Of a stretch of 32,000 bases of DNA, positions 4,091 to 32,000 are shown one piece after another; within the stretch, counting starts at the first letter, position 1, and each line of letters begins with the position of its first letter. The notes below the pieces were generated by a model. It ran no database searches and had not been told where the DNA came from. It saw only the letters and a list, made by a program, of their open reading frames with translations. Made by a program: the position numbers and the translations under genes. Origin of the DNA: Ureaplasma parvum serovar 3 str. ATCC 27815. GTDB lineage: Bacteria; Bacillota_I; Bacilli_A; Mycoplasmatales; Mycoplasmoidaceae. The stretch covers positions 510,001 to 542,000 of the forward strand of contig NC_010503.1 of assembly GCF_000019345.1 (NCBI RefSeq), read 5' to 3'.

Positions 4091-4558
4091 TTAAACAATT
4101 GTTTTGTGTTTATCTGTAAATTGCTTTAAACACATTTTTAAAGCACTTGCGCCAATACGGGCACAACGAATACGATTCATTTGTTTTTTTACATTATAAA
4201 AAGCAATTAATTCTTGCATAATATCTTTATTGTAATCTAGCCCTTCAATCATATTTAAATAATTATTAATTAATAATAACGCATTATTAAGATCTAGATT
4301 TTTTACAAGTTCACAAATAATATCAGTGGATGATATGGAAATTGCACAGCCTGTACCTAAAAAAACGACATCAATTATTTTTTGATGATTTAATTTAACA
4401 TAAACTGTAATGTCATCACCACATCCTTCTGTTGTATTATGATATGACAAATAATTTATTTCATCTTGTACAAAACAAACTTTATTTTTAGGGTGTTCAT
4501 AGTGTTGCATGATAATCTTACGTAATAAAAGATTGTCATTGATATTATAAGATGCCAT
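4091..4558 (-). CDS. sufU: SufU-type Fe-S cluster assembly scaffold / sulfur acceptor (NifU/IscU-like), 155 aa
   Basis: Intact ORF starting at ATG 4558-4556. It has three conserved Cys contexts (EGCGDDITV, GTGCAISISS, RIRCARIG) as in Bacillus SufU. It overlaps the upstream desulfurase gene by 14 nt. Confidence 0.85.
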   Translation of the reverse strand: MASYNINDNLLLRKIIMQHYEHPKNKVCFVQDEINYLSYHNTTEGCGDDITVYVKLNHQKIIDVVFLGTGCAISISSTDIICELVKNLDLNNALLLINNYLNMIEGLDYNKDIMQELIAFYNVKKQMNRIRCARIGASALKMCLKQFTDKHKTIV

Positions 4559-5964: not shown

Positions 5965-8900
5965 ATGAAATTTAAAAAAATTCTTTTAACAAGCACATTA
6001 AGTGTTTTAGGGGTTATTTCAATTGCAAGTTTAGCTACAAATTGTTCACAAACGAAAACAAAAATTAACCAGTATAAAATAACTATAAATAAATTAGATA
6101 GTCTAAATTTAACAAGTAATTTAACTACAAAACAAGCTTTAAAAGATGTTTTATTCTCAAAAGAAGGACAAAATGAATTTTTATTATCAAATGTTAAAAA
6201 AGTGGTTTATGATTGAGCAAAAAACAATAATGATCCAAAATTAGCTCATGATGTTAGTGAATATAATACACAATTAGATGAACAATTAAAGAGAATTAAA
6301 GAAAATGTAAAAAAATCATACCCAAATGATTGACAATCTGTTTTACAAAGCGAACTATATGATACTGAAGGTGGTAGTGAAAAATCATGAAAAGAAGCTA
6401 AGTTAATTGATCAAGCATACAAATCAATTACTTCTTCAATTTTTGATGATAATGATAATTGAATTAGTGTATTAAATGATCAAAATCAACTAATTGATGC
6501 CTATTCAAATGATGCTACTAAGTTGTTAGAGAATGAAAGTACTTTTAAATCAACTAAAATTGGAGATAGAAACAAAATTGTTGCTAAGACAAATAATTTT
6601 TTACAAAAAGGATACGCTAATTTATTTAATTTCTTAATTGATGATTATATTAAATATAACCTGCCTTTATCATTTGCCAACATTGAATTTAAATATGATG
6701 ATTTAAAAAATCAAAACATTTATAATAAAGATTTTTTTACAAAAATACCAACTTCTGGCACATCACCTAATTTTCCTTGATTTGATCCTAAACCAACTGA
6801 TAATAAATCAACTAACACTACAACTAATTATCTAGAAGTAGCTAAATTATTAAAAGAAAATAAATACTTAGATTCAAAAGATGATACGAATAATATTGAC
6901 AAAAAATTCAACAACAATAATGATATTAATAAATATTTAAGCTTAAATGATTTTATTACTCAAGACAACACAAATTTAACATTAAGTGTCGGTTTATTAG
7001 CTAAATTTTTATCATTATTTGGAAATGAAAATTTTGGTATTTATCAATTAGATAATTTAGATGAAAATAATATTTTAAACAATTTTATTAGTAAGAATCA
7101 AAGTAATGCAAACACAAATAATGTTGATTTATTTTATCCTTTAGTTAAAAAAGATAAAACAGCTTTTTTAAATGATTTTAAGGATGTTAAAGCTATCCGT
7201 CAAATTAATGATTTAAAAAATGGATATACTCTATTACGTAATGAAAACAGTGTTGATTTATGAGGTATTAACAATTTTAAAAGACTTCAACAAGCAGCTA
7301 AAATAGGTTTGAACGCTCTATTAACAGAGTTAAAAAATGATTTTTTATACAATGGTGCACTATACTTAAATTCACGCAAATCAAATAGTGTTAAAAAACA
7401 AGGCTATGATATTAAAGCTAAAATTAAAGATTACTTTAATAACAATAAAGAGCGCTTATTAGCACTATATATTGCTACACATCAAAACGATAGTGATTTT
7501 TTGTTTAAATCAAACTTAAAAAATGATTCAAAAGTTTTTGCATTTGATCAAAGAACAATTAATATTATTAAAGAAAACAATGAAATTCATTTATTAAATT
7601 ACTATGATAATTTAATTGATAAGTTAAATGATAAATTAATTAAATTTAATAAAAAAACATTTATTATTCCTAGTGTTGATAGTTTATATGATAATGGAAT
7701 TAATACACCAATTTACTTAATTAAAGACCAAAATCAACAAATTAGTTTATTTCAAACTTTAAAAATAAAACTAGTGGGTAATAAAAATCTTATAGATGAA
7801 AATCAAAAATTATCTACAATGATTAATGATTATGTTGAAAACTTTGATATAAAAAAACACCTTGTTGCTAATAATAAAAACTCCCAATCAATTGTTTTTG
7901 ACGATTATGTTATAAATAAAGTATTTAGTAAAGGAATAAACAGTGTTTTTGCAAATATTATTAAACAAGAACAAATTAAAAAAAGTGTAGCAAAATTCTT
8001 TGAATTTAATGATTTTAATTTTAAAAATAATTTTCTTGAAAACCAAGAATTATTAGCAGCATTTAACCAAATTATTAAGAATACAAGTGTTTTGGAAACA
8101 ACACAAACTAATAATTTTAGTAATTTTGATAACTTAAAAAAAGTTTATGAACAAGCTTTGAAATTATGAAACGATAATTATACTAAAAATGGCCCTTTTA
8201 ATCAGTTATCAATCAATTATCAAAAATACCAAGCATTATTTGAAACACTCGCTATTATTAATTACTTGTTAGATTTTAAAGATGGTAAACCAACATATCA
8301 AAATTTAATTAATTACTTGTTAAAAAAAACTGCTAATCATCAACCATTATTTATTGGTTGAAAAGCTTTAAATGATGTAACTAAAATTCCTAATTTTGGA
8401 AAAGATTCTAAAGAAGATTTTAGTTTCAAGAAATACCAAATTAATTTATATAATGGACTTGACCTATACCAATTAAAAAAAGCTGATGTTTATGAAATTG
8501 ACCAAAATAGTCAAGAAGTTAAATTCAAAAAAACTTTTATAGATGCATTAACATACACTAACGATAAAAATTATTGAAACTCAACCGTTAATAAAGATGG
8601 TTCAGTTTATAATAATTTTATTGGCTTAATTGATCAAAATAATCAAAAAGATAAATTAGGTAAAGCTTTTGAAAAAATCGACTTGTTTGATAAATTAGTT
8701 TACGCTAATAACCCAAGTAAACAATTTAAAGGTGCACTATATGGTTATGGTAGTAGAGAATTATTAATTAAAACATTAGATGGTTTTGTGTCTTATCATG
8801 ACTACCAAACACTTGCACAATTACTTTATGATCTAAATTTTAATGCAGAAGCTAATGCTGAATTTAAAACTATTTTAGATAACCAAAAACAAATTATTCC

Positions 8901-9351: not shown

Positions 9352-10010
9352 TGAATAAGCAACTAGTTCCATCCCTTTTAGCATTTGATAAAAAATATCC
9401 TTATGAACAATTAAAGATCTTTAAAAAGCATCATCTTCAAACAATACATTATGATGTTATGGATCTAACATATGTTAATAACACTGCTTTTGAAACTGAA
9501 CATTTAGAATGGCTACTAAAAAATGATTTTTTAGTACACATTCATCTAATGGTTATTAACCCTTTAGAAAAAATTAAACAATATTTTATATATAAACCAA
9601 CTCGCATATCTTTTCATTTTGAAATGAATGATTATCAAACTAATTTATTAATCATTAATGAAATTAAAAAACATCATGTTTTAGCAGGGATTGCAATTCA
9701 TCCTTGTTTATCACTAAACGATTATGCTTCTTATTTAAAAGAAGTTGATTATATTACTTTTATGTCGGTTATTCCAGGTAAGGGTGGACAAATTTTTTTA
9801 GAAGAAAGTTTATTAAAACTAAAAAAATTATATGAATATAAAATTAAAAATAATTTCAAATTTAAGATTGAAATTGATGGTGGTATTACTTTAGAAGTTA
9901 TTAAAAAAATCAATATTCCAATTGATTTTTTTGTAAGCGGTTCTTATTTAGTGAAAAATATTGAAAAACTAGAGCAAACTGTTAACGAATTTAATCAACT
10001 TGTTAATTAA
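9351..10010 (+). CDS. rpe: Ribulose-phosphate 3-epimerase, 219 aa (divergent)
   Basis: Intact ORF. Epimerase signature positions are present: PSLLAFD, IHYDVMD, HIHLMV, ISFHFE, GIAIHP, FMSVIPGKGGQ, IEIDGGI. The usual DG.FVPN segment is replaced by DLTYVNN. Confidence 0.82.
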   Translation: MNKQLVPSLLAFDKKYPYEQLKIFKKHHLQTIHYDVMDLTYVNNTAFETEHLEWLLKNDFLVHIHLMVINPLEKIKQYFIYKPTRISFHFEMNDYQTNLLIINEIKKHHVLAGIAIHPCLSLNDYASYLKEVDYITFMSVIPGKGGQIFLEESLLKLKKLYEYKIKNNFKFKIEIDGGITLEVIKKINIPIDFFVSGSYLVKNIEKLEQTVNEFNQLVN

Positions 10011-27081: not shown

Positions 27082-27333
27082 ATGATTTATAAAGAAATTG
27101 TTCGTAATATTATCAAGCATCCATTAATCTTACCAGAAGGAAAACATTACCATTTACATAAAATTCTAACTTCAAAAGATGAATTACGTAAGGGTGAAGT
27201 TAGTTTAGTTGCAGAAAATGGCAAAGAATACACTGTTGATTTATCTGCATTTGTTGACTTATTAGTTGATGGTGATTGCATTATTGATGATAATCATTCA
27301 CTTGTTGCTTTATACTTTGATGAAAGTAAATAA
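27082..27333 (+). CDS. Small hypothetical cytoplasmic protein, 83 aa
   Basis: Intact ORF with no TGA. It has a strong SD (AAGGAG) 9 nt upstream of the ATG and is followed by a strong terminator. I recognise no family. Confidence 0.62.
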   Translation: MIYKEIVRNIIKHPLILPEGKHYHLHKILTSKDELRKGEVSLVAENGKEYTVDLSAFVDLLVDGDCIIDDNHSLVALYFDESK

Positions 27334-27356
27334 AAAGTAAAAAATATTAATTTAAG

Positions 27357-27404
27357 AAATCTTGCTAAAACACACCAGTAGGTTTTAAGCAAGATTTTTA
27401 TTTG
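27357..27404 (+). terminator. Rho-independent terminator after the 83-aa ORF
   Basis: A 10-bp stem AAATCTTGCT (27357-27366) / AGCAAGATTT (27388-27397) plus an inner 5-bp extension (AAAAC/GTTTT, with one bulge). It is followed by TTTTTATTT. Confidence 0.72.
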
Positions 27405-27537
27405 TAAAAATTAAGTATTTATTATGTTATTTATTTTATGAAATTTAATAATAATTTCAATTATTATGGGTTTTATTTTGTGTAAATTTTTAGTTTTTAT
27501 GTTAAAATTTCTGTGTTATTTTATTAAAACATTATTG

Positions 27538-27553
27538 TTTTTTTTTTTTTTTT
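27538..27553 (+). repeat. Homopolymeric T16 tract in the upstream region of gene 27623-29950
   Basis: I counted 16 consecutive T directly, ending 69 nt upstream of ATG 27623. It is the longest homopolymer in the window. Confidence 0.95.
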
Positions 27554-27622
27554 GAAAAAATAATGAGTAAATAAATGTTTTGTTTTTATCTGTTTATTTT
27601 ATAAAAATGTGGGAAAAATTAT

Positions 27623-29950
27623 ATGAAATCAAATAATAAAAATTACAAATTTTTGAACATAAAAAAACGGAAATATCGCATTTTTTTTATGTTGTGTTCT
27701 TTAAATTTAATATGAGCAGGCGTTATTATAGCTATTGTTCTGCGTTTAAAAAATATTGATAAACGCTTTAGTGAAAATGACCATAAAATTGCTCGTCCAA
27801 CTTGAGAGTATGATAATGATGGAAATTTAGAGATTCACACTCAATTAGCAAATGATTTAAATGATGATTTAAAACAAAAAGCTTTAAATAATGCAAATGT
27901 CAAAGGAATTGTTGTTGACCAAAATGGTGTAGAACATGAGATAGATGTAAGTATTGATGCTAATGGTAAGGTTATTATTCCAACAAAAGATTTAGTAAAT
28001 AATGACCCAACTAAACCTAATATATACACACTTAAAAAAGTCGTTTTAAAACAACATAATCAACCAAATATTGATCTAATTAGTGAAGAGCAATTAAGTG
28101 GTGATAATCATATTTCATTTAAAAAACCAACAGTGGTTGCTCAAATTAATGATAACAATGATTATATAATGCATTTTACGAATCCTAATTTAGTTAACAA
28201 GAAAATTAAATTAACATTTAAAGTTGATGATCAAGATGATCATACAAAAACCATTGAAGCTATCATTGGATTAGATGGAAAGGCTATTTTTAAAACAAGT
28301 GATGATGCAATTTTTGCACCAGATCATAAATATACACTAACAAAAATTGAAGCTAATAACAAAAAAGTTGCTAACATTGATGAAATTCCATTAAAAAATA
28401 GAATCGTTGATAAAAATCCAATTAAAAGAATTAACTTAACACAACTAAAAGTTGCTAAAGATTTAATTCTTTGAAATAATACAAACCAAAACCAATTCAT
28501 AACTGCTACTTTTAAAAATATAAATAACGATTTTGATGATTATATTGTTAAATTAATTTATGAATACAATTATCGTGGAGAAATGAAAGAAATTGCATCA
28601 CAACCTTTCAAATTAGAAAAAAATAAAACAACATACAACAATATCCTTTTGCCAATTAGTATTCCAAATCGCTTATATCATTTTAAAAAAGTAGTAATTC
28701 AAAAATTAAATCAACCAAATAAATCTATTGATTTAGATCATGATCCAAATTTAAAATCTTTTTTTATTGTTGGTCCTGGTAAAACAGATTTTGCATGAAA
28801 AAAACCAAATGATGATCAAATTACATATGATGGTTTAAAGAGATTAAATATTGAAATTACTTCTCAAGATTATGCATTACAAAATGGTAAAAAAGTTATG
28901 GTTTGGTTTAAATCAGATGCCGAACCAAATAATGATTCACTTAAATTTATAGGCGAATTATCTCAAACTAACGCCAATGGAACAGCTGCTGTCATTAATA
29001 ATTTAAATAATTTATACGGTATGAAAGAACAAACAGAGTATTACATCTATAAAATTCAGTTCATAGATGAATTAGAATATTCAAAATTACCACCAAACCG
29101 TAATAACATTGTTTATGAATATAATAAAAATATTGCACGTAATTATGCATTCCGAACTAAAACTGCCCCTTTAATTTTAGAAAAAATAGAAAAAGATGAT
29201 AATGGTAGCATTGGAGGACAAAATTTTTATTTTTACCTAAATAAAGCTAGTGATGATCCTAGTACAATCAAGCAAGTTACTATATATTGTCGTGATAATA
29301 ATAATGAATTATATACTTCTGATGATCAAGAAATAGATTCTGTTGATCTTGTATATCATTCTTGAATTCATGATTTAAAATGAAATCGTGAATATGTTTT
29401 TGATCATGCTGAAATACAAACAACATATCCTGATGATCCTGAATATGGTGGTGAAACAAATGATTTAGAAATTAAAAGAGGATTAACTTTCAAGTTTTAT
29501 ACACCACCAAGTAAAACAGAAATACAGTGAAAACATCCTATAAAAATAACTAATAATGGGGCAATTTTAGATATTCAATTACAATCAAAAGATCGGGCAT
29601 TTGAAGATAAGCAAAAATATCGAGTGACATTAGTTGAAGCTGAAAATCAAAACAATGCTGTTGTTGGTGACTTTTTACTTGCTGGCACTTCTATTAATAA
29701 AAATGATAGCCCAATTGGTGATAATAATGATAAGAACAAAGATATAGCAACTTTGAGCTGTAATTTTGAAAACAAATTAAAAAAAGGGACTAAATACTTA
29801 TTAAAAGAAGTTCGATTTATTGCTAATCCAAATGAAGAAATTAGTGCTAAACCTACTAGAGCTGCTAGACCATTTAATAATGATAATATTATTTATAGTT
29901 TGAATCTACGAATAAATGATCCCTATGACTTTACAACTTTAAAAAATTAG
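27623..29950 (+). CDS. N-terminally membrane-anchored modular surface protein, paralog A, 775 aa
   Basis: ATG at 27623, TAG at 29948-29950. Track ORFs 28133-28474, 28583-28798, 28898-29365 and 29624-29950 are all in frame, with 7 TGA=Trp. The N-terminus has a basic stretch and then a TM segment (LNLIWAGVIIAIVLRL) with no lipobox. The body consists of about 100-120-aa modules, each ending in a [KR]-[LKY]-Y-x-[LF]-x-K-[VI] motif. Confidence 0.8.

Positions 29951-29971: not shown

Positions 29972-32000
<2,029 letters not shown>

Follow-up and report, generated by a model that had tools for sequence, protein, structure and literature searches.

What does a run of sixteen T, placed shortly before a gene for a putative surface protein, do for a ureaplasma? 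Ureaplasma parvum and Ureaplasma urealyticum are common agents of chorioamnionitis and preterm birth, and to our knowledge the antigenic variation of Ureaplasma comprises no more than MBA size variation and recombinase inversions. The run, referred to here as T16, lies in a 32 kb stretch of U. parvum DNA (the window, numbered from its first nucleotide), upstream of a gene that we call pA. An earlier note on the same DNA had read it as the spacer of a promoter that is switched by a change in the number of T. Here, we compare the tract between strains, species and genes, and weigh the promoter switch against other explanations of the same run.

The window has about 25% G+C, and its long open reading frames appear solely when TGA is read as tryptophan (genetic code 4). 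Along the locus, gyrB and gyrA are followed by a yqeH-like GTPase gene, nadD-HD, a nucleosidase gene of the PNP_UDP family, an 83-aa open reading frame, and then the tandem DUF1410 genes pA and pB (Table 1). [quoted passage not shown] The product of pA is 100% identical to a U. parvum protein (AAF30885.1 / WP_006689018.1). It begins MKSNNKNYKFLNIKKRKYRIFFMLCSLNLIWAGVIIAIVL, with a basic N-terminus and then a hydrophobic anchor, and it contains two DUF1410 stretches (E = 1.7e-18), features expected of a membrane-anchored surface protein of this family; its exposure on the surface is a prediction. In other genomes, pB has a length of 1306-1313 aa. The terminator behind the 83-aa gene is strong, and pA therefore needs its own promoter inside 27409-27622. 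The intergenic region between the 83-aa gene and pA measures 289 nt and is near-invariant across alleles apart from the borders of the tract. T16 is placed in this region, between the strong terminator and the start of pA.

Table 1. Positions and properties of the features discussed (numbered in the window; the last four rows concern tracts at other loci)
Feature	Position	Strand	Description or basis
83-aa open reading frame upstream of pA	27082..27333	+	without confident family assignment
Intrinsic terminator of the 83-aa gene	27355..27408	+	15-bp hairpin, -15.7 kcal/mol, then TTTTTATTT
TGTTAAAAT, extended -10-like element upstream of the tract	27500..27508	+	best single -10 match in the intergenic region
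Inverted repeat CATTATT / AATAATG bracketing the tract	27530..27565 (arms 27530-27536, 27559-27565)	+	folding
TTGTTT, proposed -35	27535..27540	+	3/6 match to TTGACA
T16 homopolymer, hypermutable simple-sequence repeat	27538..27553	+	sequence; length variable across assemblies
AATAAT, proposed -10	27559..27564	+	AAAAAT or AAATAT in 8/23 alleles
TATAAAAAT, alternative -10 region	27600..27608 (TATAAA 27600-27605, overlapping AAAAAT 27603-27608)	+	invariant in all alleles
pA, DUF1410 gene	27623..29950	+	775 aa under code 4; open reading frame and family match
Perfect 12-bp inverted repeat in codons 12-24 of pA	27656..27693 (arms A7 27661-27667, T8 27681-27688)	+	folding
(TA)13 directly upstream of pB	29972..29997	+	only other long simple repeat in the window
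pB, second DUF1410 gene	29997..32000, past window end	+	ATG at 29997 or 30018
Tract of 1103-aa DUF1410 lipoprotein gene next to ackA		- in L034-L043 contigs	T8 or T15-19, 74 nt before ATG
Tract of 5754-aa DUF1410 gene, ackA neighbourhood		- in L034-L043 contigs	T14-17, 81 nt before ATG; same anchor motif
Tract of U. diversum lipoprotein gene			T15, 103 nt before ATG; single long run in 21-kb contig
Tract of lipoprotein gene, Ureaplasma-like contig			T14, 60 nt before ATG; single long run in 12-kb contig

The run is the sole homopolymer longer than 8 nt in the window, which holds eleven A/T 8-mers and not one run of 9-15 nt. When the run-length distribution is extrapolated, 0.026 runs of at least 16 nt are expected. 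Markov models based on composition only yield a run of at least 16 nt in some 7% of the windows simulated; the longest run that they predict is about 13, where none of 9-15 nt is seen, and the real sequence is thus depleted in long runs. T16 is more than chance, and it is exceptional for the genome. A reading of T16 as the tail of a terminator was tried and rejected. The 45 nt before the run fold at -2.1 kcal/mol (z = 0.46), or at -2.6 kcal/mol with the run added, and the real terminator lies 150 nt upstream; with no hairpin before it, the run at the pA locus is not a terminator tail.

The earlier note had named the length of the tract in other genomes as a check, and the comparison shows a repeat of variable length in the regulatory sequence 5' of a gene for a surface protein. 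The pA locus was taken from 24 other distinct assemblies, including complete genomes, ATCC drafts, metagenome-assembled genomes and Logan assemblies (given L numbers below, as are their contigs). One contig starting inside the run and one genome without the run were not counted, and the 23 length alleles that remain, the window's among them, cover both human Ureaplasma species. They range from 10 to 19 T, with T16 (7 alleles) and T17 (6) followed by T15 (4), T18 and T19 (2 each), and T10 and T13 (1 each). The tract is kept in both species: of the 24 assemblies that extend across the site, one lacks it.

Close relatives differ as well. L011 has T17 and L012 has T16, with one other difference in 5.3 kb, and L013 (T16) and L015 (T15) are otherwise identical upstream of the tract and over 2.4 kb spanning pA. 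At the borders, TA or TAA is inserted on the 5' side, and 3 nt or 1 nt is lost on the 3' side. As a control, 42 other A/T runs of 6-8 nt were followed over the same 6.2 kb in the same 10 assemblies, and 3 of them vary; these runs being mostly stable, assembly noise does not account for the variation of the tract. Homopolymer lengths in assemblies can nevertheless be off by one, and lengths at separate loci of one assembly tend to covary (19, 19 and 17 in L005/L038; 16, 16 and 15 in L001/L034), so that part of the variation of +/-1 may be technical. Slipped-strand mispairing is well supported by these comparisons as the probable cause of the length changes. The modal lengths, 15-18 T at three loci with different flanks, could reflect a mutational equilibrium just as well as a functional optimum.

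The explanation that we prefer, and that we place just on the probable side, is that T16 is a promoter-proximal contingency repeat, the length of which modulates the transcription of pA. The effect on transcription is suggested by the position of the tract, its recurrence, its strand bias and the precedents described below. By this explanation, T16 would gain and lose T through slipped-strand mispairing, inside the sole stretch able to hold the pA promoter. A change in length would alter the geometry of the promoter region, and hence the transcription of pA, either on/off or in a graded manner, and the bacterium would vary the expression of the pA protein at random.

A special case of this explanation is the one put forward by the earlier note, with TTGTTT as -35 and AATAAT as -10, T15 being ON and other lengths OFF, as in vlp. 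We consider this special case unlikely. The tract and both hexamers are indeed found where the earlier note had seen them, separated by an 18-nt spacer of 13 T plus GAAAA, and its arithmetic is correct: T15 gives a 17-nt spacer, and natural T15 alleles exist. Around the run, some bases are kept in all alleles, including the TTG 5' of it and the GAGTAAA after the proposed -10, and the hexamer that follows the run always has A as its second base and T as its sixth (AATAAT, AAAAAT, AAATAT). Additionally, the T14 run before the lipoprotein gene of the Ureaplasma-like contig follows TTGC and stops 2 nt short of a perfect TATAAT. For vlp, maa2 and vmm, switching by a spacer repeat is established (PMC2268961). 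However, the promoter itself does not hold up well, with a weak -35, an unspecific pair of boxes, a -10 that is not conserved, a spacer that is seldom 17 nt, and a deletion of the whole in one genome. The last three bases of TTGTTT become TAT or TAA in variant alleles. The pair is omitted by a promoter scan because the -35 matches just 3/6, and the promoter-like sites of the window are fewer (18) than in shuffled sequence (29.7 +/- 4.4). By the earlier note's own criteria, equal-or-better hexamer pairs number 703 on the + strand and 739 on the - strand, more than 1,400 in the window. The hexamer pair is no more than chance in AT-rich DNA.

Comparison of alleles points the same way. Through the loss of 3 nt or 1 nt, the proposed -10 is altered in 8 of the 23 alleles. 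Nine alleles imply a spacer of 19 nt and seven one of 18 nt (18-19 nt in 16/23), with the 17 nt of the ON state in two. Indels in the flanks that compensate for tract length would favour a spacer of fixed size. This was rejected: the spacer varies more than the length of the tract itself, so there is no compensation across flank types. Both boxes are gone in L025, which has an intact open reading frame, and the paralogous tracts described below are not followed by a -10-like box.

Other promoters can be proposed for the same region. The earlier note had mentioned a second -10, the position of which (27599-27604) is off by one and reads TTATAA; TATAAA lies one nucleotide further on, within TATAAAAAT. 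With TATAAAAAT as -10, transcription would start near 27612, which places the tract at about -59 to -74. With AATAAT, transcription would start near 27571, and with TGTTAAAAT near 27515. The element TGTTAAAAT is of the TGnTAAAAT type and reads TGTTAGAAT in some alleles, with TAAAAT or TAGAAT kept. The best downstream -10 at the pA locus starts 47 nt after the run. L025, a metagenome-assembled genome, has lost 162 bp between direct repeats that are short, TGTT..TTTATTTTAT (L025 1373-1501, corresponding to about 27430-27591 of the window). The deletion takes the greater part of the intergenic region, including the T tract, TTGTTT, AATAAT and TGTTAAAAT, and spares TATAAAAAT, the ATG and an intact 775-aa open reading frame. 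Candidates for a -10 are found on both sides of the tract, and in silico no promoter model stands out.

The tract may stand upstream of a core promoter having TATAAAAAT as its -10, and serve there as an UP-like element or a DNA-shape rheostat. We hold this arrangement to be possible and somewhat doubtful, and the place of the tract relative to the real promoter is itself a prediction. A role as UP or curvature element for the downstream -10, which the earlier note had raised as its own alternative, is at least as likely as a role as spacer. A tract in such a position can also be inert, since the T-tract of vpma has been shown not to switch.

If TGTTAAAAT is the promoter, the tract becomes part of the transcript, as U16 from about +24 to about +39 in a leader some 108 nt long. 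It could then act through pausing, through a hairpin with a downstream A-run, or on RNA stability or translation. The TGnTAAAAT motif is the best single -10 match from the terminator to the ATG and is conserved as TAAAAT or TAGAAT; however, single -10-like matches are common in the DNA of the window, and TGTTAAAAT is deleted in L025. In the same manner, the bracketing inverted repeat and T:A pairs can form a hairpin of 13 bp (-7.3 kcal/mol, z = -3.1) containing AAUAAUG, but this inverted repeat is partly lost in variant alleles, and an Rfam search gave no match. A precise dependence on length is not expected of a U-run in a leader. At the paralogous loci, the runs follow a terminator hairpin, and there they cannot belong to a downstream leader. 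Altogether, we find a function in the leader quite improbable.

The preferred explanation, a repeat near the promoter that tunes pA, draws on tracts at other genes. Five long runs were found in about 90 kb from three Ureaplasma lineages, and all are T on the coding strand, 60-105 nt before genes for proteins with a signal peptide or anchor. Two of these tracts are in the neighbourhood of ackA, which is eleven protein accessions from pA in the reference genome; they lie at about 7805-7820 and 4270-4290 on the - strand of the L034-L043 contigs and at 6374-6390 and 9906-9919 of L033, and are also present in L046. Both have a conserved hairpin directly before the run (-13.6 and -8.2 kcal/mol) and invariant sequence after it. 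A stable hairpin just before the T run, as in the tail of a terminator, is thus found at the two ackA-neighbourhood loci and not at pA, and at these two loci the runs may mainly be terminator tails. No -10-like box stands right after these runs; good -10 boxes come about 19-45 nt further downstream (a perfect TATAAT at about 19 nt, TAAAAT at 44 nt and TGcTATAAA at 39 nt). At the 1103-aa gene, the run ends about 18 nt before the perfect TATAAT and so abuts the -35 position of a promoter that is predicted there. The genes differ in where the run stands with respect to the best -10; the family therefore supports a repeat in the regulatory region generally and fixes no one architecture.

A promoter cassette shared among the tract-bearing genes was considered and rejected, there being no extended similarity past the runs. 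The 10-mer ATTTTTAGTT has 4 matches against 1.6 expected, an enrichment that is not significant, and AGTAAATAAA comes after both repeats in the window, yet differs between alleles. Synteny through acetate kinase fails in U. diversum and in the Ureaplasma-like contig, although both contigs provided independent cases of long T runs. Word-index searches for homologues, with the DUF1410 protein or an alignment as query, gave 3 matches each, for which low-complexity composition is probably to blame. For other species and paralogues, a protein-alignment scan of genome contigs with the conserved N-terminal anchor returned nothing, and a degenerate DNA pattern for the same anchor had 0 matches in genome contigs, though 2 in the window. 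A metagenome scan using the flanks of the T tract returned nothing, and a phage search gave no match.

An additional observation comes from the U. urealyticum contig L046, where T17 (coding sense, 9406-9422) stands upstream of a membrane-anchored nuclease-like gene. It takes the place of a short palindromic A7-G-T7-A7 terminator-like element found in L033 (about 1275-1300), which suggests that long T runs can grow from terminator tails.

The tract may instead be neutral. It would then be a hypermutable sequence without a regulatory role, kept by a balance of expansion and contraction, and possibly a leftover terminator T-tail or a generic AT-rich element. Mollicutes, and with them this genome, are not known to have mismatch repair. 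Such an origin is in keeping with the hairpins before the paralogous runs (-13.6 and -8.2 kcal/mol), which resemble terminators with their tails, and with the T17 of L046, as a case of a long run arising in this way; at the pA locus, however, no hairpin precedes the tract (z = 0.46). The similar modal lengths at three loci with different flanks agree with a neutral balance, but no other run longer than 8 nt is present in the window, which argues that long runs are removed unless kept for a reason. In the same way, the deletion in L025 is tolerated, but the tract is kept in both human species with this one exception in 24 assemblies, and the five long runs share the T sense and the distance of 60-105 nt to signal-peptide or anchor genes. 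The T-tract at the vpma promoter of M. agalactiae, which causes no switching, is a neutral precedent (PMC2268961). On balance, we regard a tract without function as rather unlikely.

Precedents for the preferred explanation, in which the length of the tract modulates pA transcription, come from several bacteria. [quoted passage not shown] The poly(A) of M. hyorhinis vlp, the poly(T) of M. arthritidis maa2 and the (TA)n of M. mycoides vmm are, as here, hypermutable repeats directly upstream of a variable surface-protein gene of a mollicute. They also change in length by slipped-strand mispairing, and several members of the family each carry their own repeat. In Ureaplasma, the repeat is likewise hypervariable between strains (10-19 T, 23 alleles), and it precedes a variable surface-protein gene, with a DUF1410 match (E = 1.7e-18), an anchor, open reading frames that are disrupted or frameshifted in some strains, and a predicted exposure. 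The likeness to mycoplasma promoter repeats, which the earlier note had drawn for vlp, is apt at the level of the class (PMC2268961). In vlp, maa2 and vmm, however, the repeat lies between mapped -35 and -10 boxes, and ON and OFF states are tied to its length, whereas the Ureaplasma boxes are predicted ones that are weak and not conserved, and they have a spacer of mostly 18-19 nt. The DUF1410 proteins are also unrelated to Vlp, MAA2 or Vmm.

In the sabA gene of H. pylori, a T-tract adjoins the -35 and serves as a rheostat: its length sets how the core promoter is aligned with UP-like elements, and in this way tunes the binding of RNA polymerase (PMC4081817). It resembles the Ureaplasma tract in being an intergenic T-tract of similar length that varies strongly between isolates, upstream of an adhesin gene, in a genome where other genes have like-placed tracts (PMC4081817). 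It differs in that the Ureaplasma tract would be farther upstream than a position adjoining the -35 if the -10 is TATAAAAAT (about -59 to -74). [quoted passage not shown] T16 is best filed as a member of the known class of promoter-proximal contingency repeats, represented by vlp, maa2 and sabA, and is a candidate member of the spacer-switch family.

Within Ureaplasma itself, the phase variation of MBA/UU376 and of UU172/UU171 is site-specific inversion (PMC3047005, PMC3511179). These systems concern the same organisms and surface proteins of overlapping families, but they act by recombinase-mediated inversion at short inverted repeats and not by slippage of a repeat. The published 25-nt recombinase recognition sequence, ACTTTYTCTSTTTGATAATTMAAAT, was not found in the window, even with 3 mismatches permitted. 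An (AT)9 that separates UU171 from UU172 had earlier been suggested to act as a switch (Rocha and Blanchard 2002, as cited in PMC3047005); Zimmerman et al. then showed that this locus switches by inversion at inverted repeats (PMC3047005). A search of the accessible literature returned no paper on poly-T tracts in Ureaplasma, and the survey of mycoplasma repeats by Rocha and Blanchard (2002) may list them.

The T tract is not the only repeat of its kind at this locus. The (TA)13 before pB occupies most of the 47-nt gap from the pA stop to the first pB ATG and abuts that ATG, in parallel to the (TA)n promoter repeat of M. mycoides vmm. Elsewhere, its copies number 5, 7, 8, 9, 10, 11, 12, 13, 14 or 15, varying even where the pA protein is identical. 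Inside pA, the A7 and T8 runs, which occupy codons 13-22 and lie in the arms of the 12-bp inverted repeat, are the sole 7-8-nt runs that vary in the control region of about 6.2 kb (A8 in L005; T7 in L003 and L009). Each of these changes is a frameshift, and the stem covers an internal ATG at 27689. As the frame is shifted, the product would start at this internal ATG. The two runs could be a second, translational switch, or the changes could be sequencing errors.

From these repeats, a second and so far unrecognised layer of surface variation in human ureaplasmas can be proposed, one that works apart from the inversions made by recombinases. Several DUF1410 and lipoprotein genes would have slipped-strand repeats, either before the gene or within its first codons: T14-19, (TA)5-15, and possibly the A7/T8 frameshift runs. 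We offer this layer tentatively, with its chances a little short of even. If this is true, each repeat switches or tunes its own gene, and a clonal population would hold many combinations of surface proteins. Should expression be under the control of the repeats, stochastic variation within the host would affect a whole family of large DUF1410 surface proteins, which would bear on immune evasion, serology, the choice of vaccine antigens and the interpretation of differences between strains.

Some minor features of the locus were also observed. The region of the pA start codon is duplicated 185 nt upstream, as a 22-nt direct repeat (27433-27454 / 27618-27639, 86% identity). The upstream copy opens a 15-codon open reading frame that is not conserved, as variant alleles have a 21-nt insertion there. 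In six assemblies or contigs (L003, L007, L015, L035, L036 and L040), pA, pB or the 1103-aa gene is split in two open reading frames, for example 131 + 605 aa, 268 aa, or 401 + 866 aa, which fits surface-protein genes that may be dispensable and often inactivated.

Downstream of pB, a Type III-like restriction-modification pair is found, with ResIII and an N6_N4 methyltransferase (about 16400-22328 in L028-L032; 160-5875 in L041). A (TC)7-9 repeat lies near or inside the methyltransferase gene, the called products of which range from 360 to 529 aa between strains, and the gene looks like a phase-variable mod gene. A hypothetical gene adjoining the pair has 497 aa or 616 aa, or is not called. 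In L041, a U. parvum contig, the 5754-aa gene is absent in comparison with L034, and all that is left of the 1103-aa gene is two fragments (204 + 358 aa). The restriction-modification genes therefore adjoin ackA there, and large deletions are indicated in the surface-protein region.
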